NCBI GenBank assembly: GCA_030390025.1
Contig: CM059431.1
Coordinates: 150,662,001 to 150,726,000 of the forward strand
Length of the DNA stretch: 64,000 bases
Source: Squalus acanthias
Taxonomy: Eukaryota
Direction of reading: 5' to 3'
Every line of letters begins with the position of its first letter. The stretch's first letter is position 1. The translations under genes were made by a program, and so were the position numbers. Shown piece by piece: positions 437 to 55,386 of the stretch. Below the pieces are notes generated by a model. The model was given only the letters and a program-made list of their open reading frames with translations. It searched no databases and had not been told where the DNA came from.

Positions 437-677
437 CTATCAAGATTTCATTAGTATGCACTCACGTCGATGTCTCGACAATTTAGACAGTGGATAAATT
501 CCGGCAAATACGGCTTGGTCCTTTTTGCGTTGGATAATTAGTAAATGAGCTTATTAATTTATCACTTCTTCATTCCAAAGTAACAGTATTGGGAGATCCT
601 GTTCATTTGGACTTGTTTCTTTTTAAAGCTTCTTTTTATCGTTAAAAATCCTAAAATTGAACTTTGAATTTAGCGCT

Positions 678-2139: not shown

Positions 2140-2227
2140 GTATATTGTTACATCGGATGACAATTTATCTGTCTGTCTTCCTCTGTTGCGCTATTCAACA
2201 GTTTATCTCTCTCTCTCTCTACTTACA

Positions 2228-3010: not shown

Positions 3011-4110
3011 GAATAGGAAATAGGAGCAGGAGCAGGCCATTTGACCCTTCGAGCCTGCTGCGCCATTCAATAAGATTATATATGATCTTCTGCCTCATCT
3101 CCACTTTCCTCAAATATCCCCATTTGCCTTGATTTCCTTAATATTCAAAAAGCTATTGATGTCTGTCTTGAATATATTCAACGACTGAGCCTCCACAGGC
3201 CTCTGGGGGTAGAGAATGCCAAAGATTCACCACACTCTGAGTGAAGAAATTTCTTCTGATCTCAGTCCTAAAAGCCCGATCCCTTATTCTGAGACTTTGA
3301 CCCCCGATTCTAGAATCCCCAGTCAGGCAAAACATCCTCCCAGCATCTACCCTGTCAAGCCCTGTAAGAATGCTGTATGTTTCAATGAAATCACCTCTCA
3401 TTCTTCTAAACTCTGGAGAATACAGGCCTAGTCTACTCAATCTCTCCTCATAGGACAGTCCCCCCATACCAGGAACCAGTCTTGTGAACCTTCGTTGCAC
3501 TCCCTCTATGGCAAGTATATCCTTCCTTAGGTAAGGAGACCAAAACTGTACACAATACTCCAGGTGTGGTCTCAACAGGGCCCTATATAATTGCAGTGAA
3601 ATGTCTTTACTCATATTCTCAAATTCTCATAATAAAGGCCAACATACCATTTGCTTTCCTAATTGGTTACTGTACCTGCATATGTTAACTTTCAGTGATT
3701 TGAGTGCAAGGACACCAAATCCCTCTGAACACCAACATTTCCTCATCACTCATCATTTAAAAAATACTCTGCTTTTCCATTTTTCCTACCGAAGTGTAGA
3801 ATTTCACATTTCTCCACATTATATTGCATTTTCCATGCTCTTGCCCAATCACTTAGCCTGTCTATATCCCATTGGAGCCTCCTTGCATCCTCCTCACAAC
3901 TTACAATCCCACCCAGCTTTGTATCCTCCGCAAACTAGGATATATTACATCTGGTCCTCTCATCCAAATCGTTGATATAGATTACGAATAGCTGAGGCCC
4001 AAGCACTGATCCTTGCTGTACCCCACTAGTTACAGCCTGCCAACCCGAAAATGACCCGTATTTCCTACTCTCTGTTTTCTTTCCGGAAAACAAATTCTGA
4101 ATCCATGCTC
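3011..4110 (-). mobile_element. CR1 LINE 3' fragment (RT C-terminus and 3' UTR) inside the GCNT intron
   Basis: Minus-strand ORFs with [14 protein letters not shown] and RPHLEYCVQFWSPY...RRNFFTQ; frameshifted. Confidence 0.92.
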
Positions 4111-4119
4111 GTATAGACA

Positions 4120-5010
<891 letters not shown>

Positions 5011-34239: not shown

Positions 34240-35898
34240 GAACAATCCGTGCCCTGGTGAGAAAGTGAGTTTACACAATAATTGAACTCAGTTACAGCCA
34301 CTTAACAAACAAGAGGCGATTTCCGCTTCAGTGCGCCCAATGGGGAAATTGTACATCTGAGTCCATGAAACTCCGTCCATTAAAAACAATGAAAGGGAGT
34401 TAATTCCAGAGGGAATGCGCTCTGCACCCGCCATGTGAAACCTGAAGGGAACATCTCTCCAAGTCGCTGTGTTAGCTTCTAAGGGTCTCACATAATTTGG
34501 TGAAATCTTCTCTCATCCATTCCATAAGTAACGCTTTAACGTTACTGTTGACGATCCTGCCCTAACATTACTGGCCGTCACCCTTCTCTAATATTACTGG
34601 TGGTGATCCTACACTAATATTACTGGTGGTAGCCATCACCTAACATTAATGGTGATGTTTCTACTCCAATATTACTGGTGGTGATCCTACACAAATATTA
34701 CTGGTAGTGGCCATCATCTATCATTAATTGTGATGACTCTACTCTAATATTACTATGGTGATCCTACAGTAAGATTACTGGTGATGACCCTAATCTAACA
34801 TTACTGGTGATGAATCAATTCGACAATTACTGGTGGTGAACCTACTCCAACATTATTGGTCATGACTGAACCGAAGATTATTGATGGAGACCCTACACTA
34901 ACATTAATTGTGAAGAACCTCCTCTAACATTACTGGAAGTGACGCTATTCTAACATTACTGGTGGTGACTCTACTCTAACATTACTGCTGGTGACCGCAC
35001 TCTAACATTACTGGTAGTGAATCTACTCTAACATTACTGGTGGGGACTCTAACCGAACATTACTGGTGGTGTCTCTGCTCTAACATTACTGGTGGTGACT
35101 CTACAGTAACATTACTGCTGGAGACCGCACTCTAACACTACTGGTGGTGACCGCACTCTTACATTACTGGTGGTGCCTCTACTCTAACATTGTTGGTGGG
35201 GACTCTACTCTAAAATTATTTGTGGTGAGCCTATTCTAACATTACTGGTACTGACACTAATCTAACATTGCTGATGGTGACTCTAATCAATTATTACTGA
35301 CGGTGACTCTACTGTAACATTGCTGGTATTGACCCAACTCTAACATTACAGGTGGTGACTCTACTGTAACATTGCTGGTATTGACTCTACTCTAATATAT
35401 GTGGTGGGGACCCTATTCTAACGTTAGTTGCGGTGACTGTACAATAACATTGCTGGTGTTGACACTAGTCCAAGATTACTGATTGTGACAATACTCTAAC
35501 ATTATTGGTTGTGACCGCACTCGAACATTACTGTTGGTTAGTCTCACGTTACTGCAGTTTAGCCTACTCTAACATTACTGGTGGTGAACCTATTCTAACA
35601 TTACCGCTGCTGAATCTAATCTATCGTTACTGGTAGTGACTGTACTCAGACATTACTGGTGGTGAACCTATTCTAACATTACTGGTGGTGATCCTGCATT
35701 GACAAAACTGGTGGTGACCCTACTATAACATTACTGCTGGAGATCCCACTCTTACATTACTGATGATGACACTTCTCTAACCTTACTGGCCTGTGGCTCT
35801 ACAATATAATTACTGGTCCTGACCCCACTCTAATATTACTGGTGATGAACATAGATTTACATTACTGGGGGAGACCCGACTCTAACATTACAGGTGGT

Positions 35899-37086
35899 CA
35901 TGATGTGGAGATGCCGGCGTTGGACTGGGGTGGACAAAAATGAGAAGTCGCACAACACCAGGTTATAGTCCAACAGATTTATTTAATTTTACAATCTTTC
36001 GGAGCGGTTCGCTCCTTCCTCAGGTAAGTTAGCAGTGAGAGAATCTCCCAGAATTCACAATTTAAACACAGACAAAATCTATTCAAATGTTTCCCTACAT
36101 CAAAGAGAAACTAAGAGCACAGCCAAGACAATGAGATGTGTCCCAGGGGGTCCAACGTGTCAAACCACCTGCTGGCTGCATATCCTGTCAATTTGTGTTG
36201 GTTCTTGTGTTAGTCTTTTTAAAAAATAACACCTGGGAAGACCGGCCATGATGTCAAGTCACGTTCTGTATCGTGACATGAACCCGATATCGCGATTGAG
36301 GCCATCCTCATGAGTGCGGAACTTGGCTATCAGTTTCTGCTCTATGATTTTGCGCTGTCGTGTATCCCAAAGGCCGCCTTGGAGTACGCTTACCCGCAGA
36401 TCCGAGGCTGAATGCCCCTGGCTGCTGAAGTGTTCCCCGACTGGGAGGCAACCCTCCTGCCTGGCGATTGTTGCGCTGTGTCCGTTCATACGTTGTCTCA
36501 GTGTCTGCATGGTCTCGCCGATGTACCATGCTCTGGAGCATCCTTTACTGCAACGTATCAGGTAGACAACGTTAGCCGAGTCACATGAGTATGTACCGTG
36601 TACCTGGTGGGTAGTGTCCTCACGTGTGATGATGGTATCTGTGTCCATGATTTGGCATGTCTTGCAGAGGTTGCCGTGGCAGGGTTGTGTGGTGTCTTGG
36701 TTGCTGTTCTCCTGAAAGATGGGTAATCTGCTGCGAACGATGGTACTTTTGAGGTTAGGCGGCTGCTTGAAGGCGAGTAGTGGAGGCGTGGGGATGGCCT
36801 TAGCAAGGTGTTCGTCGTCATCGATGACATGTTGAAGGCTGCGAAGAACATGGCATAGTTTTTCCGCTCCGGGGAAGTACTGGGCGACGTAGGGTACTCT
36901 GTTGGTTGTGTCCCGTGTTCGTCTTCTGAGGAGGTCTATGCGGTTTTTCGCTGTGGCCCGTCGGAACTGTCGATCGACGAGTCGAGCGTCATATTCCGTT
37001 TTTACGAGGGCGTCTTTCAGTGTCCGTAGGTGTCCATCGCGTTCCTCCTCGTCTGAGCAGATCCTGTGTATTCGCAGGGCTTGTCC
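35899..37086 (-). mobile_element. Penelope-like element 3' fragment (RT thumb/linker, GIY-YIG endonuclease, terminal region)
   Basis: QALRIHRICSDEE.., SCDSANVVYLIRC..C..WYIGET..LRQRMNGH, VGEHF, EQKLIAKFRTHEDGLN. Confidence 0.92.
35988..36028 (-). ncRNA. Minimal type I hammerhead ribozyme motif in the Penelope terminal region
   Basis: Minus strand reads TTAC-CTGAGGA-A-GGAGCG-AAC-CGCTCC-GAAA-GATT-GTAA: conserved core, 6-bp stem II, stem I TTAC/GTAA. Confidence 0.7.
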
Positions 37087-37742
37087 AAAGGCTGGTGACT
37101 CTGCTCTAACATTACTGAAGTTGACCCTACTCGAACATTGCTGGTGGTGATTCTACTCTGTTATTGCTGGTGCTGAATCTACACGAACATTACTAGTGGT
37201 AATCCTAGTCCAGCAGTACTGGTGTAGACCCCATTCTAACATTACTGGTGCTGAATCGACACTAATATTACTGCTGATGACACTTGTCTAACATTAATGA
37301 TTGGGTCTCTACTCCAACCTTATTGCTCTTGACCATACTCGAACATTGCTGGTGCAGACTCTACACTAACAATACTGGGGATGACACTACTCTAACATTA
37401 CTGGAGGCGACTGTACTCGAATATAACTGGTAGAGACCCTCGTCTAATATTATTGGTTGTGACTCTACTTTAGCATTGCTGGAGGCGACTCTTCTCTAAC
37501 ATTACTGGTGGTGACTCTACTCTAACATTACTGGAAGTGATCCTACTCTAAATTACTGGTGGTGACATTATTCTAGAATTACCCGTGATGATCCTACTCT
37601 AACAGCACCGTTGGTAATTCTACTCTAACATTACTGTTGGTGATTCTACTCTAACATTACTGGTGGTGGCTCTTGTCTAACTTTTCTGATAGTGACACGA
37701 CACGAACATTACTGGTGATGACCTATTCTAACATTACTGGAG

Positions 37743-38730
37743 GTAGGGTGCCCTCGGTGTGAGTACGGGCCTCGTCTCCACAAGGACTGTGCTGTGATCA
37801 CTCCAACAAATTCGTCCAAGCAGAGATGCATCAGGAGGAAGTCAACTGGGATTGCCCCGTGTGGGTTCTCTCACCCACTCCCGCACGCCCAATCTGGCAG
37901 CTGTGTCCTTTAGTGGTGCTACCGATCCGGTCTTGGTGATGGACATTGAAGTCCACGACCCAGACTGCATTCTGCGCTCTCGCTAACCTTAGTGCTTCTT
38001 CCAAGGAGGCGTACTGTTTCATCAGATTAGGGAGTGCGTATGTTGTCAGTCGGAGCTTCCCTTACCCATGTTTTACCTGTTGCCACGAAACTTCATGGAG
38101 TCCGAAATAAATTATGAGGACTCTCAGGGCCACTCCGACCCGACTATAAACTGGAGTACCGCCATATCTGGTGGGTCAGGATAGATCCAGGGATGGAGAT
38201 GGAAGAGAATGGGACATTGGCTGAAAGATATGATTCTGTCAGTATGACTGTGTCAGGCTGCTGTTGGACTAGCCAGTGTGGCAGATCAGCTAATTTTAGC
38301 ACAAGTCCCCAGATATTAGTGATGAGGACTTCGCAGGTTGAATGGGTGGTTTGTGCTTTTATCGTTTCCGAGCCCGATCCGTCCAATTTCATTCTTATTA
38401 TACTCATTTAGAGCGCTTTGATGCAAATTAGTGTCTTCATCGGCCATCTCAGAGGTTAATTAACTGTCACATATAGGCCTTACAGGCTAAGGATGAGAGG
38501 TTTCCTTCCCTACTATCCATTAGTGAACAACTTGCTTTTCTACAATAAACCGATAGCTTCATGTACATCATTCATGATACTTTCATTTTATTAGAGATTT
38601 ATTTAACTAACTGCTTTGAAATTCCCAAACTGCCATGGGGAGGCTCTGGTTTGGAACTCACATCTTCGTATTATTAGTCCCGCCCTCTGAATTACTAGTC
38701 AAGCAACATAACCATTATGCTGCCGTACCC
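37743..38730 (-). mobile_element. 5' fragment of a CR1/L2-group LINE: tRNA-like head followed by AP endonuclease
   Basis: Minus strand starts GGGTACGGCAGCATAATGGTTATGTTGCTTGACTAGTAATTCAG; then TNIWGL...QQQPDTVILTESYL and WVVDFNVHH (APE motifs). Confidence 0.72.
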
Positions 38731-38736
38731 ACGAGA

Positions 38737-41336
38737 GGTCACTGGCAGTAATATCAGTGACTTGTCCTCGCCATTATTGTTAGTGTGGAGTCATCATCAA
38801 TAATCATAGAGTAGGCTCATCAACAGTAATTTCTAGTAGGTTCAACACTGTTAATGTTAGAGTGGAGTCAACACATGTTATGTTAGATGGGTCTCACAAT
38901 CAATAATTTTAGAGTTGAATCTCCACCGGTGATGTTAAAATTGGGCACCACCAGTGATGTTAGAATACAATTAACACCAGTAATATTAGGGTAGTGTAAG
39001 CAGGAACAGTGTCAGATTAGTGTCAGGAACAATAATGCTAGAGTAGGAATAAAGGCCAGTAATGTCAGAGTAAGTTCACCACCGGTGATGTCAGAGTAGG
39101 ATCACCACAAGTATTGTTAGAGTAGAGTCATCACCAGCAATGTTATAGTAGGATCACCTCTAATAATATTAGGTCCGAGTATTGATCAGAACTTGTTATG
39201 TTTTGTTCCAAACAGTAATGTTGCAGTCGGGTGACTACCAGTAACGTTAGATTAGGCTGAAGCCGCAGTGGTGTTAATGCTGAGTCACGATCAGAAATGT
39301 AAGAGTCCGGTCACCACCAGTAACGTTAGAGTAGGGTCACCACCAATAATGTTACAGTAGATTAGCACCAGTATATTTAGAGAATGATAACCACCAGTAA
39401 TGGTAGAGCAGAGTAACCACCAGTAATGTAAAAGCGGAGTAATTAACAGAAAGATTAGAATAGGCTCAGCAACATTAAAATTAGATTAGGTTCACCACCA
39501 GTACTATTAAAGAAGGGTCACTACAAGTAATGTTAGAGTAGGGTCAACACCAGTAATGTTAGAGCAGGTGCACAAAAATAATGTTAGAATAGTGTCACCA
39601 CCAATAATGTTGGAGAATGATTTCCACCAAAAACGTTACAGTAGGGTCACCACCAGTAATCTTAGATTTGATTCACCAGCAGTAATGTTGGAGTAAATTC
39701 ATCAACAGTAATGTTAGAGTAAAATCACACTTCAGTAATGTTAAAGTATAGCCATCACATGTAATGTTAGAGTAGGTTCACCACCAGTAATGTTAGAGTA
39801 GGGTCACTATCAATAATGTTAAAGTAGAGTCACCACCAATAATGTTAGAGTAAGGTCACCACCAGTAATGTTAGAGCAGTGTCACCACCAGAACCGTTAG
39901 AGTTGGGTCACTACCAGTAATGTTGGAGTAGGGTCTCCAACAGTAATCTTACATTTGGGTCACCACCAGTATTGTAAGATAAGCGTCACCACCAACAATG
40001 TTAGAGTGGGATCACCACCAGTAATGGTAAAGTAGGGTCATCACGAGTAATGTTAGAGATTGTTCAACACCATTAATGTTAGATTAGATTCAGAACTTGC
40101 ATTAGAGTAGGGACCCCACCAGTAATATTAGAATAGGTTCACCACTAGTAATTTTATAGTAGCTTCACCACCAGTGATGTTACATTAGATTCATCACTAA
40201 TGTAAGAGTAGGCTCACGACCAGTAATGTTAGAGTAGGTTCACCAGCAGCAAAGTTAGAGTAGATTCACGGACAGTAATGTTAGTGTAGAGTCGCCGCCA
40301 GTAATGTTAGATTCAATTCACCACCAGTAATCTTAGAGTATATTCGCCACCAGTAATTTTAGAATAAGATCACCAGCAGTAATGTTAGAGAAGGGTCACA
40401 ACAAGTAATGTTAGATTAGATTCTCCACTAATGTTAGAGCAGTGTCAACACCAGTATTGTTAGAGTAAGGTCACCACCAGTAAAGTTAGAGTAGATTCAC
40501 CACCAGCAATGATAGAGTAGAATCACATTCCAGAAATGTTAGAATTTAGTCATCACTAGTAATATTACAGTAGAGTCACAATCAGCAATGTTAGTGTAGG
40601 TTCACCAACAGTAATGTTAGAGTAGGGTCACCACCCGTAATGTCAGAGTAGGGTCACCACCAGTAATGTTAGAGTAGGGTCGCCACCAGTAAAGTTTGTG
40701 TAGGGCAACACCAATACTGTTAGAGTAGCGTCACCAACAATAATGTTAGAGTATGGTTACCACCAGTAATGTTACAATAGGGTCACCACCAATAATGTTA
40801 GGTTAGCTTCGCAACCAGTAATGTTAGATTAGCTTCGCCACCAGTAATGATAGTGTAGAGTCACCACCAGTAATGTTAGAGTTGGGCACAACCTATAATG
40901 TTAGAGTAGATTAGCACCAATATAGTTATAGAATGGTAACCAACAGCATTGTAGGTTTGAGAAACCACCAATAATGTTAAAGCAGATTCATCAATAGTAA
41001 GGTTAGAATTGGTTCACCACCATTAATGTTAGAGTAGGTTCACCACCAGTAATGTTAGAGAAGGGTCACCACCAGTAATGTTAGACTAGGATCTCCACCA
41101 GTAATGTTCGATTAGATTCTCCACTAATGTTAGAGTAGAGTCACCACCAGTAATTTTAGAGTAGATTCACCACCATTAATGTTAGAGAAGTGTCACCTCC
41201 AGTAATGTTAGAGTCGAATCACACTCCTGTAATGTTAGAGTATAATCACCACAAGTAATATTATAGTAGAGTCACCAACAGTAGTGTTAGAGCAGGGTCA
41301 CCACCAGTAATGTTAGAGTAGATTCACGACCAGTAA
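38737..41336 (+). repeat. 26-bp minisatellite array, right arm block 1
   Basis: Tandem GTCACCACCAGTAATGTTAGAGTAGR units. Confidence 0.95.
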
Positions 41337-41970
41337 TCCTGTGTCCTCGGCCCAAACATCTTCAGCTGCTTCATCAATGACATTCCCTCCAACATAAGGT
41401 CAGAAATGGGGATGTTCGCTGATGACTGCACAGTGTTCAGCGCCATTCACAACTCCACAGATAATGAAGCAATCCATGCCCTCATGCAAAAGACCTGGAC
41501 GACTTTCAGGCTTCGGCTGATAAGTGGCAGGTAACATTCGCGCCACGGAAGTGCCAGGCAATGACTATCTCCAACAAGCGAAAGTCTAATCACTTCCCCT
41601 TCACATTCAATGGCATTACCATCGCCGAATCCCCCACCATCAACATCCTGGGGGTCACCATTGACCAGAAACTTAAATGAACCAGCTACATAAATACTGT
41701 GGCAACAAGAGCAGGTCAGAGGCTGGGTATTCTGCGGCGAGTGTCTCACCTCCTGACTCTGCAAAGCCTTTCCACCATCTACAAGGCACAAGTAAGGATT
41801 GCGATGGAATACTCTCCACTTGCCTGGATGAGTGCAGCTCCAACAACACTCAAGAAGCTCGACACTATCCAGGACAAAGCAACCCGCTTGATTGGCAACC
41901 CATCCACCACCTTAAACATTCACTCCCTCCAGTACCGGCGTACCGTGGCTGCAGTGTGTATTATCTACAA
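41337..41970 (+). mobile_element. CR1/L2-group LINE 3' fragment, copy 1, 5' half (continues at 51314)
   Basis: VLGPNIFSCFIND..MFADDC and YKAQVRIAMEYSPLAW; nearly colinear with 52691-53672. Confidence 0.88.
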
Positions 41971-43121
41971 CAGCGGTTCCCAACCTTTTCATTTATGTGG
42001 ACCACTACATCGTCATCAATAGCTTTTGCGGACCACAACGTAAGCAAGCCGTTTAAAACATTTTGTGAATAATATCACAACTTACCTCTGGCACTATTAT
42101 TACCCTTCTCTTCACTTGCCATGTTCAATGTGAAGTTGTTCCTCGCCATTCTTTTGCAGTTTTTACACTCTTGTCTTGCCTTCTGGTTTTGAAGTCGCCT
42201 GAATTTTGTGCCCTTTAACGTCATGGCCTTAAATCCCTCTTTCTCTTCTGGATGAATTGTTTACTAGTTCCGTTGGACCAGGCTGTACTGTAATGACGCT
42301 CAGTACCTTTGCTTTGCATGGGTACACGCATGCAGAATCACCTCCTTGAAGGAACTCCATAGAATTACAGCAACAACCCCCGCATCGAGTTTAAACACTA
42401 ACCACATTCTATCTGTCCTGCCTGCCAATACTTCAAACCCTTTTGTTTCGGTGGAACCCATCAGGTCTGTATAAGCTCCCTCTGTTTCGAAAGCTGTAGC
42501 ACTGTTTCATGAAACGAAACCCTGTTTCACTACAGCAAAGGCTCAGCGACGCTTGGTCTGACTAATTCCTCTCTGTCTCTCTTGACTGACACATGACACG
42601 TGTAGTATTTCAGAAAGTGCTACAATTGACACAGTATTGGGGAGTCCAGGACAATCCTGGAGGGGTGTGTAAAACATGTTTTGAAATGAGCTGGAGAGAA
42701 ATGTGAGGTGACGGGTCTCGAGGGGCAGACTGAGGAGAGGGTCTGTACATTGAATGGGGACATGTCAAAAAGAGCCAGAAGGGTTAGGGATTCAGAAACA
42801 CAAATCTCTCCGAAGGGTTACTTCCTCCCCCCCTGTTCCGAATTTTTGCCAGACACTTTTCAGGTTTAACATGGATGGTGTGGGGGGGTGGGGGAGCTGG
42901 GTGGCGGGGGAGACGTGTTCGTGTCGTCACAATCAAACCTCTGCCCGAACCAAACTCCCACAGTCACAGGATTAGAATGGCGGAGGCCGGCAGATTCCCC
43001 TTCACTGTTGGTGCAATCATTCTTTGCACAATTAAGTGCTCTTTTTCTGTTACTTTCGATTTACACTCTCGGATGAGAAGTAAAACTAAAACCGCCCAGC
43101 GCGGGGCTCTAACAATCCGCG

Positions 43122-43195
43122 CAGCTATTCTTACAGTTATTGAGAGCGTGGTGCTAATATCGCTAAGGGCACGGGTTTAATCCCTGGACGGGTCA
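43122..43195 (+). pseudogene. tRNA-Ile(AAT) pseudogene
   Basis: GAGAGCGTGGTGCTAATATCGCTAAGGGCACGGGTTTAATCCCTGGACGGGTCA matches the 3' two-thirds of recalled vertebrate tRNA-Ile(AAT); 5' end degraded. Confidence 0.72.
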
Positions 43196-43833
43196 TCAGC
43201 AGTTTATTTCTTACCTTTTCGGTTTCTCCTGACATTGAAAATCCAGACTTTACAAAAACTCTACACAAACTGTTTGGGGGAAATTATTTTCAATAACATC
43301 CATTTCACCTTTGCACTGGGCGGAGCAACACATCTTTCTGTTTATTTGTCTTTCTTCGGTTTGATGATCAACGTTTAACTCGCGGCCTGTTCCCGTTAAT
43401 GGTCACAAGCAGTAACAGACAGACAGAGCGTGTCTGACCGCCCCGAGATGTGTAAAAGGGATCAGGTTAGGACAAATGCATCAAATCAAATGTTCACCAG
43501 GCACCGAGATAGACAAAAAACACAGAAAGGGGCAGAAGGAGACAGAGAAATAAAAGCTAAATACAGCCAATAGAAATAGTTTTCATCCTTGATGTCTCTC
43601 TCTATTCAAACCCAACCCTTCAGTGGCGGATAAAAGACTTCAGTTTAAATTGGAAAGTTCGAGAAAAGGACCCAAAGAAAGAGACTCAAAATATTTAAAA
43701 GCCGGGGAATCACAACTGTGCTATTTCGACCTCACATCAAAGTGATTTTCGTGTCATTCTTTTAAAGAAACTCTAATTCCTCCTGCTCATTAATCACTTC
43801 GGGGATTGGGTTCCGACCAGATAGATACATATA

Positions 43834-44728
43834 TGGGGGAAAAATTCAGTTGGTTGCACCTCCCGTTAGCGCCTTAAGAGGGCGCTATTGGGGCGCAAAT
43901 CATCTAGCACCCAGGCGCGGCGATGTTTGCGCCGCTCGCGACATTAACTAGACATTTTGCGGCGGCGCTAAACACTACCGCCACGATCTCCTGCGCCGGC
44001 AGATCGTGACGTCAATCGAGTGCGCAACGCCCCGGTATCGCCCCGGAGCAGATATTGAGTGGCGCCCCCTGCCTTACTGCCTGACGCTAGCAACGACATA
44101 TTGAGGGGAGGTTTTTGCAGTCATGAAGGGACTGGGGGAGCGCTATTTAAAGGCGTCCGCTACCTGCCTTTTATTGTTGGTGCCATTTTTGAACCACGCA
44201 TTCTGAGAGAGAGGGAGAGAGACTTCTGGAGAGATTCAACGCTGTGTGAAAGAGTTTTGGGTACTGAGCAGCACTTTGCAGGTTCATTTTGATTTGCCAT
44301 TCCTTGTATCGATTTAGAAGAAACTGTGTGGGCTGCACTCTGAGCTCTTTCACTCGTACTCTCCATTGTTCTTTCCAGCAGATTTGATGTGCAGGTCTCT
44401 CCAGGCCGAGATTAAAGGCTGCAATGAGTAGGATGTGGATGGAAAGCAAGATCAACCATCCCCTTTAAGAACTGGCCCGTGCCATTGTGTGTGTGTCCCA
44501 TTGCTGACCTACATCACATGAGCTTCGCCAGCGCTCTGAGGTAGCGCCTCGCTCCTCGGCCTTTGCGCCTTAAGACAGGTGTGAAGCGCCTGATTTAGCG
44601 CTCCAATCACCTCCAGGGGCGATAAAAGTCAAGTTTGCAGTCGGTGGCGATAATTAGCGGCAGGCGCTAATCTTTGCGCCCGGCCGATAATTGCACCCCA
44701 AAAGGGGCGATGCTGAATTTCTCCCCCA
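43834..44728. mobile_element. GC/CpG-rich non-autonomous DNA transposon (~895 bp)
   Basis: TIRs TGGGGGAAAAATTCAG / CTGAATTTCTCCCCCA, TA on both flanks, internal TAGCGCC/GGCGCTA motifs. Confidence 0.72.
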
Positions 44729-47010
44729 TAGAGTCATAGAGTTGCACAGCGCAGAGAGATGCCCTTCGGCCCATCGTGTCTGCACCGGCCATCAAGCCCT
44801 ATCTATTCTAATCCCATTTTCTAGCACTTGGTCCGTAGCCTTGTATGCTATGGTGTTTCAATTGCTCATCTAAATGTTTATTTAAATGTTGTGAGGGTTC
44901 CTGCCACTTCCACCCTTTCAGGCAGTGAGTTCCAGATTCCAACCAGCCTCTGGGTGAAAAAGATTTTCCTCAAATCCCCTCTAAACCTCCTGCCCTTAGC
45001 TTGAAACTATGCCCCTGGTTATGGACACCTCTACTAAGGGGAAAAGTTCCTTTCTATCTACCGTATCTATGCCCCTCATAATTTTGTACACCTCAATCAG
45101 GTCCCCCCTCAGCCTTCTCTGCTCCAAGGAAAACAACCCCAGTCTGTCCAGTCTCTCTTCATAGCTGAAACGCTACAGCCCAGGTAACATCCTGGCGAAT
45201 CTCCTCTGCACCCTCTCTAATGCAATCACATCCTTCCTATAGTGTGGCGACCAGAACTGCACACAGTATTCCACCTGTGGCTTAACTACCGTTTTGTACA
45301 GCTCCATCATAAAGTCCCTGCTCTTATATTCCATGCCTCGGCTAATGAAGGCAAGTAACCCAGATGCCTTCTTAACCACCTTATCTACCTGTCCTGCTGC
45401 CTTCAGGGATCTATGTACATGCACACCAAGGTCCCTCTGATCCTCTGTCCTTCCTGGGGTTCTACCATTCATAGTTTATTCCCTTGCCTTGTTAGTCCTC
45501 CCAAATGCATCACCTCACACTTTTCAGGTTTAAATTCCATTTGCCACTGTTCTGCCCATCTGACCGACCAACCCGTCTATATCGTCCTCTAGACTGAGGC
45601 TTCCCTCCTCGCTATTTACCACTCCACCAATTTTCGTGTCATCTGCGAACTTACTGATCATACCGCCTACATTCATATCTAAATCATTAAAGTACACTAC
45701 TAACAGCAAAGGACCCAAAACTGATCCCTGCGGTACACCACTGCACACAGGCTTCCAGTCACAAAAACAACCTTCGACCATCACCCTCTGCCTCCTGCCA
45801 CTAAGCCAATTTTGGATCCAATGTGCCAAATTGCCCTGCATACCATGGGCTCTTACCTTCTTGACCAGTTTCCCATGCGGGACATCGTCAAAAGCCTTAC
45901 TGAAGTTCATGTCGACCACAGCAACTGCACTACCCTCATCCACACACCTCGTCACCCCATCGAAAAATTCAATCAAATTGGTCAGACATGATCTCCCCCT
46001 GACAAAGCCATGCTGAATGTTCTTCATTAATCCTTGTCTCTCCAAGTGGACACTAATTTTGCCCCTCAGGCTTCTTTCCAATAATTTCTCTTCCACTGAT
46101 GTTAGGCTCACTGGCCTGTAATTCCTTGGTTTATCCCTACTACCCTTCTTAAATAATGGTACTACGTTAGCTGTCCTCCACTCCTCTGGCACCTCCCCTG
46201 TTGCCAGAGAGGTTGTGAAAATTTGTGTCAGAGCCCCTGAAAACTCCTCCCTTGCCTCACAAAGCAGCCTGAGTTACATCTCGTCTGGGCCTGGGGATTT
46301 ATCCATTTTTAATCCCTCTAAAACCGCTACTACCTCCTCCCTCTCAATGCTAATTTGTTCAAGTATATCACAATCCCCTGCCTGATTTCCATTCCTACAT
46401 CGTCCTTTTCCATAGTGAACACAGATACAAAATATTCATTTAAAACCTCACCTACATCTTCCGGCTCTACACACATATTGCCACTTTGTTCCATAATGGG
46501 CCCTACTCTTTCCCTGGTTATCCTCTTGTCCTTACTATACTTATAAAACACCTTGGGATTTTCCTTTATTTTGCCCGCCAGATTTTTTGTTCATGCCCCT
46601 CTTCACTCTCCAATTTATTTTTTAAGTACCCCTTGCACTTTCTATACTCCTCTAGGGCTTCCACTGTTTTTAGTCCTTTGTATCTGCCAAGAGCTTCCCT
46701 TTTTTTCCCAAACAATTCTTGTATATCCCTTGACATCCAGGGTCCCCTGTCCTTGTTTGTCCCACACTTGACCTTTACGGGAAAATGTTGGCGCTGTACT
46801 CTCTCTATTTCCTTTCTGAATGACTTCCACTGCTCTCATGTGGATTTTCCTAACAGTAGCTGATCCCAGTCCACTTTGACCAGATCCATCCATATCATGT
46901 TAAAATCGGCAATCCCCCAATTTAGAAGCTGTTTTTCCAGTCCATCTTTGTACATTTCCATGACTACCTTAAATCTCACAGAATTATGGTCAACTGTCAC
47001 CAAAATGGTC
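44729..47010 (-). mobile_element. CR1 ORF2 fragment with 3' end
   Basis: 220-aa minus ORF with NYRPVSLTS, GRSCLTNL, GVPQGSVLGP and FADD. Confidence 0.92.
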
Positions 47011-47015
47011 TCCTA

Positions 47016-48277
47016 CATAGAAACATAGAAGGTAGGAGCAGGAGTAGGCCATTCGGCCCCTCGACCCTGTTCTCCATTAATGAGATCATGGCTGATCATG
47101 CAAATTCAGTACCCTATCCCTGCTCTCTCCTGATATCCCTTGATCCCTTTAGCCTTAAGAAATATATCTAAGTCCTTATTGAATGTATTTAATGAGTTGG
47201 CCTCAACTGCCTTCTGTGGTAGTAAATTCCACAGGTTCACCACTCTCTGGATGAAGAAATTCCTCCTCATCTCAGTCCGAAATGGCTTACCCCTTATCCT
47301 TAGACTGTGACCCTTGGTTGTGGGCTCCCCCGCCATCGGGAACAACCTTCCTGCATCTAGTCTGTCAAGTCCTGTTAGAATTTTATAATTTTCAATGCGA
47401 TCCCCTCTTAATCTTCTAAATTCTAGCGAATATAAGCCTAATCGACCCAATCACTCTTCATACGTCATTCCTACCATCCCAGGTATCAGTCTGGTGAATC
47501 TTCGCTGCTCTCCGTCCATGGCAAGAACATCCTTCCTCAGATAAGGCGACCAAAACTGCACACAATACTCAAGGTGTGGTCTCACCAAGGCCCTGTACAA
47601 CTGCAGCAAGACATTCTTGTTCCTCTACTCGAATCCTCTCGCTATGAAGGCCAACATATAATTTTCCTTCACAACAGCCTGCTGCACCTGTATGCTTACC
47701 TTCAGCGACTGGAGCACACGGACACCCAGGTCTCGTTGCACTGCCACTTTTCCTAATCTATTGCCGTTCAGATAATAATCTGTCTTTCTGTTTTTGCACC
47801 AAAGTGGATAACCTCGCATTTATCCACATCGTACTGCATCTGCCATGCATCTGCCCAATCACCCAACCTGTCCAAATCATACTGGAGTTTCTGTGCATCC
47901 TCCTCACAGCACACACGCCCAACCAGCTCTATGTCGTCTGCACACTTGGAAATATTACATCTAGTTCCCTCGTCTAGATCATTAATACATATTGTGAATA
48001 GCTGGGGTCCTAGCACCGATCCCTGCGGTACCCGACTAGTCACTGCCTGCCACTCCGAAAAAGACCCGTTTATTCCAACTTTGCTTCCTGTCTGCCAACC
48101 AGTTCTCTATCCAAGTCAGTACCTTACCCCCAAACCCATGTGCTTTAACTGTGCACGCTAATCTCTTGTGCGGGCCCTTATCGAAAGCCTTCTGAAAGTC
48201 CAAATACACCACATCCACTGATTCTCCGTTATCTATACTACCAGTTACATCCTCAAAAAATTCCAGTAGATTAGTCA
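47016..48277 (-). mobile_element. Second CR1 3' fragment
   Basis: CATAGAAA tail; [21 protein letters not shown] and RLGLYSLEFRR on the minus strand. Confidence 0.92.
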
Positions 48278-48672
48278 CTGATATCTCGGAGCTCAGGTAA
48301 TGTTAATGTTCTGCTGACGTGTTTATAAACATCTAAAGCTGACACACCAGGGGAGACCTCACAGGGTTGTACACGGAGTGACGTATACTGAAGTTTTTAT
48401 AAGAAGTTACAGAGCACAACATGTGTGTGAAATTCCCCGTGGTTTTCTCGGCACTGATGTGTTGTGAAGGGATGAAGACTGGCCCGAAGTCCCACTGAGC
48501 CGCACTGTAGGTGAAATTATATGAAGTTAAACGAGAGAGCGATAAGAGTTCTGAATCATGGAGAGATTTTCTGATATTGTTGTTGAATTTCATTTACATC
48601 AAGCACTCCTTGGACTCTCTGCCGCAGAATTCAGAGCTGGGGATCCACTTTACAATCAGCAGTAAAAATAAC

Positions 48673-48746
48673 CGCCCAGCGTGGGGCTCGAACACACGAC
48701 CCTGAAAAAAATGAGTCTCATGTTCTACCGACTGAGCTAGCCGGTT
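48673..48746 (-). pseudogene. tRNA-Lys(CTT)-derived pseudogene
   Basis: Minus strand ..CCGGCTAGCTCAGTCGGTAGAACATGAGACTCATTTTTTTCAGGGTCGTGTGTTCGAGCCCCACGCTGGGCG; anticodon arm replaced by a T7 run. Confidence 0.85.
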
Positions 48747-49379
48747 CTATCTGCAACAGTTTTCTCTGTCTGTCTTTATCAGTAAATCGACCGGCCAAAG
48801 CCCGATTGAAAGATGGATTCCTCTCACTGACCGATCATAAATCCCAGATCTTTTGTTATTTCACCTTCTAAAATCAGCCATGATCTCATTGAAAGCCGGA
48901 GCAGGCTCGAAGGGCCGAATAGCCAACTCCTGCTCCTATTTCTTATTAAACATTCACATCCATTTTGCTCAGTATTTGTTTCGCTCTCTTTTTTTATTCT
49001 GTTCGTGCTTGATCTTATAAGCGTTTAACTGTAGTTATTTATTAGAAGGAAGAAATGAACAGAAGTGATTAACTGGAATGGTAGCAGGGATGAGGGACTT
49101 CAGTATGTGGGGGATTGGATAAGCTGGGGTTGTTCTCCTTCGAGCAGAGCTTTTGACAGAGGTGTTTAAAATCATGAACGGGTTTGATATCGTAAATGAG
49201 GAGAAACCTTTTTCCAGTGGCTAAAGAGTCGGTGACCAGAGGACACTGATTGAAGGTGATTGGCAGAAGAATCCGAGGCTACATTAGGAATCATTTTTTT
49301 TAACACTGCGAGTTGTTGGGATCTGGAATGTACTGCCTCAATTCACAATTAAACAGATGCGTCCCAATAAATGAATTAT

Positions 49380-50122
49380 TGGCCCAAAAATTAGTGCCGC
49401 TACGCGAGAGTATACACTGTGTACTCTCGCGTATTCTGTCTCCGATTGCCGTTTTTCTGCATGCACTGCGCATGCGCTGAAAACCGGCACTTGGTGAATT
49501 CAAAAGGGGCGGTTCCTAGGTGAACCGCGTGCGCGCTACAGGCTGCGCGCACGCAGTGCACTTAGTGCTTTGGACGCGCAGGTAAGCATGGAAGATTTTA
49601 GACATAAAGAAAGGAGGTGTAAGACCCTCTTTTAACAAGGTAAGTACTTAATTAAGTATTATTTTGAATTTTTTTTAACAGGTATATCTTTTTTAGAGAC
49701 TTTAAAGACAGGTAAGTTTATTTTTATAACTTTTTAAAAGACTTTAAATTTTTTCAAAAATTTAATTTTTTGTTTAAAATGGTTAATTCATTTAACTATA
49801 CTTATTTTATTAATGTGATGGTTTTTTTTAAATTTAATTGAGGTTTAGCTGTTCTTTTGGGGGGGTATAGTATTCATAGCTTTCACAGCCTTGCTGTGAA
49901 AGCTATGAATGAAAGATGGTGTGCTGCCATTGGCTCTAACTGAGTCACGTGATCCCACAGCTCGCACGAATTAACTAGGCCTGTGGGATACGAAAGCCCT
50001 GCACAGCTGCTGTCCAGAACATCAAGTTCGTGCGAGCTCGGACTGAAAAAGCCAGCGCGCAGTGAGAGATCGCGGGAAGGCCTTACCCTCGCACGAAGGC
50101 TCACTCACTAATTTTTGGGCCA
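49380..50122. mobile_element. Non-autonomous DNA transposon (~740 bp) with AT-rich centre
   Basis: Perfect 17-bp TIR TGGCCCAAAAATTAGTG / CACTAATTTTTGGGCCA. Confidence 0.8.
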
Positions 50123-50262
50123 TAAATTCAGATATATCAACAGACACTTGCAACTTGCAGAGATAATAAACATTTACATCGAACACAAGTCATGAATACA
50201 TTTGTATCTAGCGGGAATTTAGCCAGTATATTTACAGCTCTCACAGCTGCTGGGTGGAGCGT

Positions 50263-50324
50263 TCCTTGGTGGGCCAGGGGTTGGAATTCGGTGCAACCAG
50301 AATACGGGTTTGATTTCCTGTCTG
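50263..50324 (+). pseudogene. Degraded tRNA-Glu-like pseudogene
   Basis: TCCTTGGTGGGCCAGGGGTTGGAATTCGGTGC...CGGGTTTGATTTCCTGTC resembles recalled tRNA-Glu; anticodon arm lost; T-run follows. Confidence 0.5.
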
Positions 50325-50602
50325 ATTTTTATAAATCAGTTGTGCAGTTCATTAAATCAATTACATGAACATATAATTAAAGGCAGTATCACGATGAATA
50401 ATTGTTTTAATCGCCATTAATAAACCGGTAACTTTCTGTTGCAGACAAGAGGAAATGTTAGCATGCTGGCCGAATGAGAGTCAGACTTCAGTATGTATTT
50501 GTGATGTGCCTTTATCCGTTCCATCCCAAAGGATTGCAGCACTTTCCAGCCAGAAGCAACCAACCTCTGGGGACCATCAGATAACATTTTGTCATTTAAA
50601 AA

Positions 50603-50676
50603 ATGCCCCGTTGGGCATCGAACACAGGCTCTTCTGTATATTAGACAGGCGCTTTGACCAGCTAAGCCACGGAGCC
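50603..50676 (-). pseudogene. tRNA-Thr(AGT)-type body with AAT at the anticodon position, probable pseudogene
   Basis: Minus strand GGCTCCGTGGCTTAGCTGGTCAAAGCGCCTGTCTAATATACAGAAGAGCCTGTGTTCGATGCCCAACGGGGCA followed by a T-run terminator. Confidence 0.85.
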
Positions 50677-51313
50677 AACTCACGACTGAAAGCTTTCTCC
50701 TCCCCTCTCTGATATCTGGTACCTGTGGTATCGCGTTCCACATTCCAAACACTCTTTGCATAAACAAGTTTTTCCTGAATTCACGACTGGATTTATTACT
50801 GAGGATCTTATAATAATGACATTTAGTTTTACTTAGTATGACACAAGAGGACTGGCGGCTGCGGTTGTATAAAACCCACTGTCAAAGAGCCACACTCCGT
50901 ACATGCACACCTGAGGTTGTATAATAGTGGGGACACTGGTGAAGATTGTTCAATTGAGGGGGCACTAATTGGGTACATATGATAGAGTGGAGCAGTACTT
51001 GCCGTTGTGCGGTAGTGAGGTGGGAAATATTATTGTGAGTTTCTCTGGAGCTGATTTTTCGGCCCAGTTGATTTGCTCCTTCCAGAAAACCAACCCGCCC
51101 TCCATCCACGGCAGGTTTTCACTTCCATCAGCTCATCCCCAAAACCCAGCTTTAAACAGCAATAAAAATAGTGGAACCACACGGCGGGTCATTCAACATC
51201 AGTGGAGACAACAGACACGCTTATTTTAGGGGTTTGGAACTTTTTTTCACGGACCACCTGCAGTACCCTCGTGGACCACTGGTGGGCCGCGGACCACAGA
51301 TCGGGAACCACTG

Positions 51314-51668
51314 ATCTACAAGATGCACTGCAGCAACTCGCCAAGGCTTCTTCGGCAGCACCTCCCAAACCCGCTACCTCTTCCACCTAGAAGGACAAGG
51401 GCAGCAGGCGAATGGAAACACCACCACCTCCGAGTTCCCCTCCAAGTCACACACCATCCTGACTTAGAAGTATATCGCAGATCCTTCATCGTGGCTGGGT
51501 CAAAATCCTGGAACTCCCTACCTAACAGCACTGTGGGAGTGCCATCACCACGGACTGCAGCGGTTCAAGAAGACGGCTCACCACAACCTTCTGAAGGGCA
51601 ACTAGGGATGGGCAATTAATTCTGGAATTGCCAGTGACGCCCTGGTCCCATAAAGGAATAAAAACAAA
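51314..51668 (+). mobile_element. CR1/L2-group LINE copy 1, 3' half
   Basis: Resumes IYKMHCSNSPRLLRQHLPNP; A-rich tail. Confidence 0.88.
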
Positions 51669-52690
51669 TGTTAGATTAGGTTCACCTCAAGTAATATTAG
51701 AGTAAAGTCACCAAATGTAATGTTCGAGTAGGATCATCACCATTAATGTTCGAGTAGAGTCACCACCAGTTGGAGTAGGTTCAGCACCAGTATTATTAGA
51801 GTAGGGTAACTTCCAGTAATGATAGAGTAGGGTCACCACCAGTAATGTTGGAGTAGGGTCATCACCAGTAATGATAGATTAGGGGCACCACCAATAATGT
51901 TAGAATAATGTCACCTCCAATAATGTTACAGAATGGTTACCACCAGTAACGTTACAGTAGGGTCACCACCAGTAACGTTAGAGTATGGCCACCTCCAGTG
52001 CTGTAGAGTAGATTCACCAACAGTACTTTTAGAGTATATACAACACCAGTAATGTTAGAGTGGGGTCACCACCAGTAATGTTGGAGTAGGGTCACCATCA
52101 GTAATGTTAGAAAATGGTCACCACCAGCAATGATAGATAAAGGTCACCACCAGAAATGTTAGAGGAGGGTCACCACTATTAATGTTAGAGTAGAGTCACC
52201 ACCAGTAATATTGGAGTTCACCACCAGTAATGTAAGTGTAGGGTCACCATCAGTAATGATAGAGTCGGGTCACCACCAGTAATGTTAGAGTAGAGCGCCA
52301 CCTATAATGTTAGAGTAGATTAGCACCAATATAGTTATAGAATGGTATCCAACAGTAATGACAGGTAGAGAAACCACAAATAATGTGAAAGCAGATTAGA
52401 TTAATCTCACCACCATTAATTTTAGATTAGATTCACCACCATTAATGTTCGAGTAGGTTCACCTCCAGTAATGTTAGTGTCGAATCAATACCTGTAATGT
52501 TAGAGAATAGTCACCAAAATTAATATTATAGTAGAGTCAGCACCAGTAGTGTTAGAGCAGGGTCACCACCAGTAATGTTAGTGTGCGGTCACCACTAGTA
52601 ATGTCAGAGCAGGGTCACCACCAGTAGGGTTACAGCAGGGCCAACACCAGTAATGTTAGTGAAAGGTCACCACCAGTAATGTTAGAGTAT
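51669..52690 (+). repeat. 26-bp minisatellite array, right arm block 2
   Basis: Same monomer; shares diagnostic variant units with 40890-41330. Confidence 0.95.
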
Positions 52691-53672
52691 TCCTGTGTCC
52701 TCGTCCCAAACTCCATCAGCTGCTTCATCAATGACATTCCCTCCAACATAAGGTCAGAAATGGGGATGTTCGATGATGACTGCACAGTGTTCAGCGCCAT
52801 TCATAACTCCACAGATAATGAAGCAGTCCGTGCCCTCATGCAACAGGACCTGGACGACGATCAGGCTTGGGCTGATAAGTGGCAGGTAACATTCGCGCCA
52901 CAGAAGTGCCAGGCAATGACTATCTCCAACAAGCGAAAGTCTAACCACATCACCTTCGCATTCAATGGCATTACCAGTGCCGAATCCCCCACTATCAACA
53001 TCCTGGGTGTCACCATTAACCAGAAAATTAATTTAACCAGCCAAATAAATAATGTGGCAACAAGAGCAGGTCAGACGCTAGGTATTCTGCGGCGAGTGTC
53101 TCACCTCCTTAATCACCAAAGCCTTTCCACCATCTACAAGGCACAAGTAAGGAGTGTGATAGAATACTGTCCACTTGCCTGGATTAGTGCAGCTCCAACT
53201 ACACTCAAGAAGCTCGACACTATCCAGGACTAAGCAGCCCGCTTGATTGGCACCCCATCCACCACCTTAACATTCACTCCCTCCACCATCGGCGTACAGT
53301 GGCTGCAGTGTGTACCATCTACAAGATGCAATGCAGCAATTCGCCAAGGCATCTTCAGCAACACCTCCCAAACCCGCGACCACTTCCACCTAGAATGACA
53401 AAAGCAGCAGGCGCATGGGAATACCACCACCTCCGAGTTCCCCTCCAAGTCACACACTATTCTGACTTAGAATTATATCGCCGAAACTTCATCGTCATGG
53501 GTCAACATCCTGGAACTCCCAACCTAACAGCACTTTGGGAGTACCATCAACACACGGACGGCAGCGGTTCAAGAAGACGGCTCACTACAACCTTCTGAAG
53601 GGCAACTAGGAATGGGCAATAAATGCTGGCATTGCCACTGACATCCGGATCCCATAAAGGATTTTAAAAAAA
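52691..53672 (+). mobile_element. CR1/L2-group LINE 3' fragment, copy 2 (no hAT insertion)
   Basis: Same 5' truncation point (TCCTGTGTCCTCG) as copy 1; single ATCTACAA at the hAT target position (~53317). Confidence 0.9.
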
Positions 53673-55060
53673 TGTTAGATTAGTGTCACCTCAAGTAATA
53701 TTAGAGTAGAGTCACTAACAGTAATGTTAGAGTAGGATCATCACCATTAATGTTCCAGTAGAGTCACCAGCAGTAATGTTAAAGTAGGGTCACCACCAGT
53801 AATGTTAAAGAAGGGTCACCACTAGTAACGTTAGAGTAGAGTCAGCACCAGTATTGTTAGAGTAGAGTCACCACCAGTAATGTTAGACTAGAGTCACCAG
53901 AAGTAATATTAGTATTGAGTCACAACCAATAATGTTAGAGTAGAGTCAGCAGCAGGAATGTTAGAATACGTTCATGTCCAGTAATTTTAGAGTAGATTCA
54001 CCATCAAAAATGTTAGAATAGAGTCACCACCGGTAATGTTAATGTAGAGTCACCACCACTAATCTTAGAGTAGAGTCACCACCAGTAATGTAGAGTAGAG
54101 TCACCAACAGTAATGATAGATTAGAATCAGCAGCAGTAATCTTAGAGTAGAGTCACCACCAGTAATGAAGAGTAGAGTCATCAACAGTAATTTAAGAGTG
54201 GACTTACCACCGCTAATGATAGTGCAGAGTCACCACAAGTAATGTTTGAGTAGAGTCAAAACCAGTAATTTTCGAAAAAAGTCACCACCAGTAATGTTGG
54301 AGTAAATTCGCCACCAGTAATGTTAAAGTAGAGTCACCAACAGTAATGTTAGTGCAGAGTCACCACAAGTAATGTTAGAGTAGAGGCACCACCAGTAATG
54401 TTAGAGCAGAGTCACCACCAGTAATGTAGAGTAGAGTCACCACCAGTAATGTGAGTAGAGTCACCACCAGTAATGTTCGAGAAAGGTCACCACCAGTAAT
54501 GTTAGAGTAGAGTCACCACCAGTAATGTTAGAGTAGTCACCACCAGTAATGTGAGTAGAGTCACCACCAGTAATGTTCGAGAAAGGTCACCACCAGTAAT
54601 GTTAGAGTAGAGTCACCACCAGTAATGTTAGAGTAGTCACCACCAGTAATGTTAGAGTAGAGTCACCACCAGTAAGGTTAGAGTAGATTCACCACCAGTA
54701 ATGTTAGAGTAAAGTAACCACCAGTAATGTTAGAGTAAATTCGTCACCAGTAATATTAGAGTAGAGTCACCACGATTAATGTTAGAGTAAAGGCACCACC
54801 AGTAATGTTAGAGTAAAGTAACCACCAGTAAGGTTAGTGTAGAGTCACCACGATTAATGCTAGAGTCGAGTCACCACCAGTAATGCTGGAGTAGTATCCC
54901 CACCAGTAATGTTAGAGTAGGTTCACCACCAGTAATGTTAGAGTAGGTTCACCACCAGTAATGTTAGAGTAGGTTCACCACCAGTAATGTTAGAGTAGAT
55001 TCACTACCAGTAATGTTAGAGTAGGTTCACCACCAGTAAGGTTAGAGAAGGGTCACCTCC
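53673..55060 (+). repeat. 26-bp minisatellite array, right arm block 3 (most homogeneous)
   Basis: Near-consensus GTCACCACCAGTAATGTTAGAGTAGA monomers. Confidence 0.95.
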
Positions 55061-55386
55061 ATTTATCATCATGGAGCAAACCTAAATTTAACTTTCTAGT
55101 GGATGAGTTAAGATTTCACGAATCATTACGAGGATCAAGTAACCGAACGCAGTGCCCGTGTGGGAAGTTCCCTTTGGGGATCAGGGTGCTTGTGCACAGT
55201 ACACTCCATCTGCTATGAGTTCCCGTTCATTAATTTGAATTGATGAGTTTCATGAGCTGATTTGTAAAATGTACCCTTTGTTGTCCCAGGCACACTGAAG
55301 CGGAACATCTTGCCTTGTTGGTTTAGTGACTGTAAGTGACGCCAATTGTCGTGTGACTAATATTTTCACCGGGGCACCGAGTATTC

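Follow-up and report, generated by a model that had tools for sequence, protein, structure and literature searches.

A Buster-type hAT transposon family of Squalus acanthias with a captured block of a host tRNA gene cluster

The stretch of Squalus acanthias DNA analysed here, a window of 64,000 nucleotides (assembly GCA_030390025.1, contig CM059431.1, positions 150,662,001 to 150,726,000), contains at window positions 41971–51313 an element of 9,343 bp that combines the ends of a hAT transposon with an interior of host DNA and tRNA-derived sequences. With a probability of roughly 0.88, a Buster-type hAT transposon acquired this interior in a single capture from a host tRNA gene cluster, and the product was subsequently amplified to about 140 sites. 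This account is built on what was shown for the family size, the target site duplications (TSDs) of its members, the host donor blocks, the direction and single origin of the transfer, a transposase-coding partner, and the decay of the carried tRNA genes without purifying selection. Throughout the text, C and L numbers denote contigs and loci of the source genome, and consensus coordinates refer to a 4,258-bp consensus of 17 copies.

The dispersed family

Patterns spanning the junctions between transposon ends and cargo were found in the genome, with at most one mismatch, 136 times for the left and 139 times for the right junction, and 0 times in controls. Both counts are lower bounds, and they replace the candidate totals of a first look (655, 2827, 616 and 138), which were discarded as copy numbers. 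Both ends, together with the adjoining interior, match many chromosomes at 87–95%. The family has been copied to about 140 sites, spread over most chromosomes. Of 73 loci that were read, six without a left junction were removed by a filter and six more (L072, L387, L388, L091, L371 and L095) were dropped as segmental duplicates or apparent recombinants; the remaining 61 independent copies form a sample in which about half of the family was examined, with some 40 further listed copies lying outside it. Both ends are present in 58 of the 61 copies, and a TSD with at most one mismatch was identified in 57, with 57 distinct TSDs, as anticipated in an initial annotation of the window, which had called for other loci with both ends and different TSDs. 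The base at position 4 of the TSD is T in 56 of 58 cases and that at position 5 is A in 55 of 58, a central TA that agrees with the Charlie/Buster-like target proposed at the same time. The alternative that other copies of these termini are merely MITEs (miniature inverted-repeat transposable elements) free of cargo has failed, as cargo-bearing ends are numerous.

Among the 58 two-ended copies, 39 keep the Lys, Glu and Thr sequences, 12 share one deletion and seven have other deletions; these class sizes come from a sample weighted towards long copies, since the right 1.2 kb served to choose 36 of its first 40 loci. The deletion shared by 12 copies ends at consensus position 3508, and its carriers form a clade (approximate likelihood-ratio test support 95.9). 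In addition, a 2.3-kb piece of a long interspersed nuclear element (LINE) is found at consensus position 1949 not only in the window copy but, with an identical truncation point, also in two copies with different TSDs, L064 on C5 and L066 on C25. This implies that the piece was carried along by transposition and that a form of 6–7 kb was mobile; the initial view of this piece as a later insertion into the window copy is therefore no longer tenable. Secondary masters kept moving in this family, namely a 2.2-kb deletion form and a 6–7-kb form with the nested LINE piece.

Four copies (L069, L087, L088 and L091) are located within 90 kb on C4, at 29.15–29.24 Mb. One of these, L091, is flanked on its left as L088 is and on its right as L069 is, which points to recombination between copies. 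When four sequence runs were compared with one copy over its left end and the adjoining first kilobase, contigs covered end and cargo alike, and none of the listed pieces bridges the junction.

Host donor blocks and the capture

Exact host-type patterns gave 109 matches for tRNA-Lys(CTT) and 138 for tRNA-Thr(AGT), crowded on C26 at 40–44.4 Mb and on unplaced contigs. The C26 blocks align in one piece with consensus 94–4188 at about 90–93%, lack both terminal inverted repeats (TIRs), and hold intact genes for tRNA-Phe, -Lys and -Thr alongside numerous further tRNA genes. This collinearity substantiates the proposal that the core of about 4 kb was captured from a tRNA cluster of the host. Likewise, no transposase is contained in the core, as had been claimed: consensus 94–4188 is collinear with host DNA, and the autonomous partner described below matches only the ends. 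A decayed transposase as the origin of the core can hence be discarded.

Fifteen TIR-less paralogs from C26 and the unplaced contigs were aligned as donors; contigs with paralogs of the block include C460, C603 and C319. All 15 share the host flank past the right breakpoint, which coincides exactly with the tail of a host retroelement in each of them, and nine share the left flank, the other six starting further inside; no hAT sequence was found at either breakpoint in any of the 15. The 47-nt deletion in the Phe sequence of the element is absent from eight donors and present in seven, and six of these seven also have an 11-nt 5' deletion in the Ile relic. Damage to the Ile, Glu and Phe sequences thus preceded the capture, as it is present in host paralogs. 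A maximum-likelihood tree built on consensus 1060–4185 shows 18 elements as monophyletic (ultrafast bootstrap 100) within the clade of Phe-deleted donors (also 100), and the donors are more diverse than the element copies. The nested position of the elements among Phe-deleted host paralogs indicates a single capture from host to transposon, and the tree and the shared deletions together indicate that the block first decayed in host duplicates and was then captured once, from one of these duplicates.

Several tandem arrays were observed among the host tRNA loci. The first, with a unit of 1,798 bp that contains tRNA-Phe(GAA) and tRNA-Lys(CTT), is located on C26 at 44.31–44.35 Mb (L246, L252) and on C271; its unit matches consensus 1418–2918, suggesting that the captured host block has also seeded a tandem array. 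Arrays of Thr-AGT together with a long Arg-TCT gene, with a unit of 2,063–2,069 bp, were found on C26 at 41.66–41.69 Mb (L221–L238) and on C27, C603 and C959, and Lys-TTT tandem arrays with a unit of about 1.78 kb on C29, C2208 and C1484 (L151–L179). Loci from an RF00005 search (Lys-TTT and Cys) were dismissed, as their similarity to the element is limited to the tRNA or to common repeats.

The autonomous partner

Among 21 right-end and 30 left-end loci, four matched the transposon ends without the cargo. One of these, 197 bp long and empty, is bounded by a TSD of its own, and the other three (2.1–4.9 kb) are copies of a transposase-coding element with a plain form of 2.4 kb, whose termini, short TIRs and subterminal repeats are the same as those of the cargo element; a search for an autonomous partner with the same TIRs had been suggested initially. 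Of 30 partner loci, 18 are complete, a TSD with a central TA was found in 17 of the 18, and T4 and A5 are present in 17 of these 17. Stop-free frames of 632–638 codons occur in nine of the 30 loci, three of which are tandem duplicates, and the best-scoring copies lie 1.9% from the partner consensus. Both TIRs, the TSD and an open frame of 633–638 codons are retained in L348, L355, L350, L353 and L343. In the genome, at least 167 left ends are free of cargo.

The 627-residue protein encoded by L348 is nearest to the ZBED5/FAM200/GTF2IRD2 clusters (Atlas features 0.99; the ten best in one family set), which places the partner in the Buster family. The D, D, CxxH and E motifs are visible in its sequence. 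Four partner fragments gave no Pfam match over the cut-off, albeit one weak match to zf-C2H2_12 (E 0.0011), and a PDB sequence search with the partner gave no match under E 0.1. Loci with PF05699 were considered as partner and rejected, since none of the 50 Ac/BED-type hATs that were read has these TIRs; a tblastn comparison of their frames with the consensus yielded no credible match, the best having an E value of 0.004 over 26 aa. At L131–L138 and about 50 further places, a young hAT family of the Ac type was observed, which has a BED-like N-terminus, many open frames of about 650 codons, near-identical scores and unrelated ends, and has possibly been active recently.

The cargo element retains 93 and 70 bp of partner-type ends, which also match the empty form. 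We propose that a non-autonomous hAT of the Buster/Charlie type took the 4.1-kb tRNA-cluster block once from a partly decayed copy of the cluster, likely by template switching during gap repair. The capture would have replaced the interior of a copy of the L325 type, with the 93- and 70-bp ends kept, and the transposase of the 2.4-kb partner would then be the likely agent of amplification to about 140 sites.

Some points weigh against this proposal. No exact donor copy turned up among the paralogs, of which the nearest is 5.4% away from the consensus; the junction microhomology amounts to 1 nt on the left and 3 nt beside a T run on the right, overlaps that are compatible with template switching but weak; and we infer the action of the partner transposase on the cargo ends from the shared ends and target. 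A missing donor copy would also fit a composite transposition, in which two hAT copies flanking the tRNA block moved it and later lost their inner parts, and the numerous cargo-free ends make paired insertions possible. We nevertheless consider this improbable, as the core contains no inner TIR or transposase remnant, the breakpoints are free of hAT sequence in 15 of 15 donors, and the two termini correspond to the left and the right end of a single element, each of them broken internally. A transfer in the opposite direction, by which element copies on C26 lost their ends and became blocks of the tRNA cluster, is hardly credible. It could account for the seven TIR-less blocks with the Phe deletion of the element, but the eight blocks without this deletion hold a Phe gene that the element cannot supply, and the host flank common to all 15 blocks past the right breakpoint, the nesting of the element clade and the larger diversity of the donors also argue against it.

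Fate of the carried tRNA genes

The element consensus differs from the commonest host genes at two sites in Lys and at five sites in Thr; bases specific to the element include A2 and A24 in Lys and T38 and G48 in Thr (linear numbering). None of 42 Lys copies (at least two differences each) and none of 55 Thr copies (at least four each) is equal to the host gene. Across 15 element loci, Rfam scores reach at most 51.5 and 48.8 bits, compared to 65.1 and 68.7–69.5 bits for host loci. Purifying selection on the carried tRNAs was not detected, their mutation load relative to the flanks being at or above background. Since no copy equals the host gene and purifying selection is absent, it is pseudogenes that were spread rather than clusters, and the initial suggestion of a route for spreading tRNA clusters is not upheld. 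Both promoter boxes and a T run are present in the consensus of Lys and Thr only; the complete set is lacking in Ile, in Glu and in the window copy. When the copies are scored with A-box and B-box patterns, 15 of the 41 Lys copies keep both boxes, as do 14 of the 55 Thr copies.

The Lys and Thr sequences carry an excess of mutations. In a parsimony analysis of 34 near-complete copies, the ratio of observed to expected changes is 1.88 for the Lys body and 3.0 for its 20-nt inner 5' flank, and 1.96 for the Thr body and 2.39 for its 20-nt 5' flank, compared to 0.97 for the Ile body and 1.14 for the Glu body as controls, and 0.62–1.49 in 40 background windows. A tree-free test, in which distinct derived alleles at non-CpG sites were counted after removal of alleles seen in donors, gave 0.64 for Lys (p 1.5e-4) and 0.58 for Thr (p 1.5e-3), compared to 0.29 for Ile, 0.35 for Glu and 0.25–0.45 in 31 background windows. 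When only singletons are counted, the Lys excess holds (1.64 in the body, 2.7 in the flank). Raised divergence in the 20 nt upstream marks transcribed mammalian tRNA genes (PMC6130373), and the excess in the inner 5' flank of Lys and Thr matches that pattern. It appears somewhat more probable than the contrary that the Lys/Thr excess comes from binding or transcription by RNA polymerase III (Pol III) after transposition. Lys and Thr, with A and B boxes intact at capture, would then have stayed bound or transcribed by Pol III for a time, and this activity would have roughly doubled their mutation load up to the point at which the promoters broke. A stronger version, namely that live Pol III tRNA genes were moved to about 140 sites and transcribed there, and that box-intact copies may make variant tRNA or act as TFIIIC sites, is put forward tentatively, at a little under even odds.

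Several observations speak against the transcription step. In the singletons-only count, Thr has no excess (1.09 in the body, 0.95 in the flank), whereas Glu reaches 1.71 and one background window 1.86. The C-to-T excess reported in human tRNA genes is lacking (4.1 versus 4.8 per 1000), and many Thr changes are common to subfamilies, so that parsimony counts are inflated on a poorly resolved tree. A shared hotspot at one B-box G in both tRNAs was also considered and rejected, since changes recur at G57 in Lys and, in Thr, at linear position 54.

Even with the capture as proposed, the Lys/Thr excess could have arisen because selection favoured master copies that had lost the Pol III promoter, or through gene conversion with unsampled paralogs; this is the main rival explanation, and we regard it as less likely than not. 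In line with it, the B box is lost more often than the A box (in 39 versus 9 of 55 Thr copies and 20 versus 11 of 41 Lys copies), single B-box changes are common to 12–15 copies, and the spectrum is rich in transversions. However, the excess extends to the upstream 20 nt, where there is no internal promoter, it remains once the alleles of the 15 donors are removed, and enrichment of B-box mutations has also been reported in transcribed human tRNA genes (10.1101/2025.06.09.658696). Much less plausible is the idea that the element spreads working tRNA genes and helps to seed new tRNA clusters. The mere two sites that separate the consensus Lys from the host gene, the copies with both boxes kept, and the abundance of tRNA loci in shark genomes (bioRxiv 10.1101/2025.06.08.657570) could be taken in its favour, but not one Lys or Thr copy is equal to the host gene in the examined half of the family, the maximal Rfam scores stay below those of the host loci, conservation relative to the flanks is absent, and the host tandem arrays come from the donor block, not from TIR-bearing copies.

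In the host paralogs L245, L250, L275, L276, L281, L288 and L290, the Thr sequence differs by 12–18% from L241, compared to 6–8% for the surrounding DNA, and in the Phe-deleted paralogs the 20 nt upstream of Lys differ by 35–45% from L241. The fast change of decaying host tRNA genes in Phe-deleted paralogs is the same as that in the carried tRNAs.

Organization of the window copy

The window copy is flanked by ATCTACAA at 41963–41970 on the left and by the same sequence, ATCTACAA, at 51314–51321 on the right, with the T and A at positions 4–5 that the family prefers. The 16-bp imperfect TIRs, the exact 8-bp TSD and the GGACCAC repeats were confirmed as initially described; the TIRs match at 13 of 16 positions in this copy and at 15 of 16 in the 17-copy consensus. 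The left end (end A, 93 bp, 41971–42063, minus strand) corresponds to the 3' end of the partner and contains the TIR at 41971–41986 and GGACCAC at 41999 and 42030, as well as a 9-bp insertion common to the window family and the L325-type autonomous copy. The right end (end B, 70 bp, 51244–51313, minus strand) corresponds to the 5' end of the partner, with GGACCAC at 51251, 51273 and 51291 and the TIR at 51298–51313. The element interrupts a host LINE, which is present at 41500–41962 and resumes at 51322–51700. In agreement with the earlier claim that this LINE rejoins across the element, an unbroken copy located 1.5 kb downstream (about 52855–53704) aligns with the joined flanks at 89.8% over 850 nt. 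Arrays of a 26-bp satellite at 34537–41337 and 51667–55061 enclose the host LINE with the element, and C7 holds several duplicates of the locus between 150.5 and 153.2 Mb (L072, L096, L386–L388). The window copy is the most diverged of the 61 copies examined (4.9%, compared to a median of 2.7%).

The captured host block is split into three parts. The first (42064–43822, consensus 94–1949) has a 90-bp deletion at 43072 and is collinear with the TIR-less C26 donors, the second (48283–49379, consensus 1948–3055) includes old host repeat fragments at 48871–48948 and 49059–49341, and the third (50122–51243) corresponds to consensus 3054–4188. Between the first two parts lie a nested 0.9-kb MITE (43832–44730) with 18-bp inverted ends and two LINE pieces on the minus strand. 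The MITE is found at the same point in L064, and its orientation in the window is opposite to that in both L064 and the C7 duplicate L072, which suggests an in-place inversion via its inverted ends. The first LINE piece (44735–47001), for which "CR1-type" is a label of the initial annotation only, is the one common to L064 and L066 at the same site, and the second (47015–48277) is also present in L072 and absent from L064 and L066. A nested 0.74-kb MITE (49380–50121) is absent from L072.

Of the tRNA-derived pieces reported initially, Thr and Lys were recovered by Rfam and ARAGORN, while the Ile-like and Glu-like pieces and the Lys fragment score below the tool thresholds and are placed by donor alignment only; a fifth remnant, of tRNA-Phe, had been missed. 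The isotype names Ile and Glu are labels that we assume to apply. The tRNA-Lys 3' fragment (43092–43113, minus strand) is already present in the donors. It is followed by the tRNA-Ile-like pseudogene (43117–43192, plus strand), which has an 11-nt 5' deletion found also in six of 15 donors and broken A and B boxes in the consensus, and by the tRNA-Phe(GAA) remnant (43704–43732, minus strand) with its 47-nt internal deletion. The tRNA-Lys(CTT) pseudogene (48673–48746, minus strand) has in the consensus two differences from the host gene, both promoter boxes and a T5 run downstream. In the Glu-like tRNA relic (50262–50324, plus strand), the boxes are broken in 15 of 15 donors and in 43 of 43 copies. 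The tRNA-Thr(AGT) pseudogene (50603–50676, minus strand), with both boxes and a T6 run downstream in the consensus, is the sole Rfam match above the gathering score in the window copy (33.7 bits), and Lys scores 19.9 bits. ARAGORN miscalled the anticodons of both Lys and Thr in the window copy, and called Lys-CTT and Thr-AGT in most sister copies; ARAGORN matches at relaxed thresholds were dismissed as noise. At the start of the cargo, a minus-strand sequence GAG/GTAAGT (42077–42095) resembles a splice donor and ends a short open frame, and is possibly an exon relic of the donor block.

Comparison with known systems

The family is a multicopy Pack-TIR, which is a known kind of element: host sequence lies between the ends of one TIR element, the parents lack TIRs, and the copies have distinct TSDs. 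Its size, copy number, tRNA cargo and completeness of record are unusual. For 100 animal genomes, Tan et al. 2021 (PMC8277862) describe 370 Pack-TIRs, of which 208 are hAT, with a median capture of 224 bp and only four multicopy (1.4%), among them Pack-hAT-N8_XT of Xenopus tropicalis and Ssk-FB4 of Drosophila, the example given having three copies and 291 bp; elephant shark is without a Pack-TIR, and the word "tRNA" occurs 0 times in the available text and 12 supplement files. Common to the multicopy Pack-TIRs and the present family are host DNA between TIR ends, a TIR-less parent, distinct TSDs, and hAT as the commonest carrier, and the short overlaps at the present junctions may correspond to the microhomology of those elements. 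In contrast to known Pack-TIRs, the present family has a capture of 4.1 kb and at least 136 copies, its cargo is a piece of a tRNA cluster, it has given rise to secondary masters, and a partner with open frames still exists.

The Buster TSD is nnnTAnnn (PMC3517528). The family resembles the Buster hATs (related to Charlie, ZBED5 and GTF2IRD2) in its 8-bp TSD with central TA, its short TIRs starting with CAG and its ZBED5-type partner protein. As a difference, the non-autonomous form did not arise by internal deletion, but is filled with host DNA and longer than its partner (4.2 versus 2.4 kb). As in plant Pack-MULEs and in a hAT of Pyrenophora tritici-repentis that transduplicated a histone-H3-like gene (PMC3538342), host genes have been transduplicated inside a TIR element, to tens of copies. 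However, those elements carry protein-coding fragments, in the fungal case beside their own transposase, whereas here Pol III genes are carried, with no coding frame.

Other links between mobile DNA and tRNA genes differ in mechanism. The "tRNA-TE unit" of Antarctic notothenioids (PMC12527291), a block of tRNA-Ile/Thr with repeats that was multiplied and moved, represents local amplification, with no TIRs, TSDs or partner transposase shown in the available text; here the mechanism is visible and the copies lie on most chromosomes. Dada transposons (PMC3706591, PMC8869645) insert into tRNA genes, and tRNA-derived SINEs copy a tRNA head via RNA, whereas in the present family genomic tRNA loci with their spacers and flanks were moved as DNA. 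No TIR transposon carrying tRNA genes was found in the literature searched, the scope of which excludes subscription journals, Dfam and Repbase, and an unlabelled consensus may exist.

Significance

Since the donor, the intermediate donors, the empty form and the partner are all present in one genome, the origin of a Pack element can be followed stage by stage. The pair of cargo element and partner is a natural Buster pair whose ends have moved 4–7 kb. The family exemplifies one route by which tRNA-like loci become more numerous in shark-type genomes rich in tRNA loci, and it is also a warning that part of the tRNA-locus counts in such genomes represents pseudogenes carried by transposons. Should transcription be the cause of the mutation excess, the family would allow direct measurement of how fast, and with which spectrum, tRNA genes mutate in the absence of selection. 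The dispersed copies would then constitute a replicate experiment on tRNA mutation free of purifying selection, with the silent relics as internal controls.

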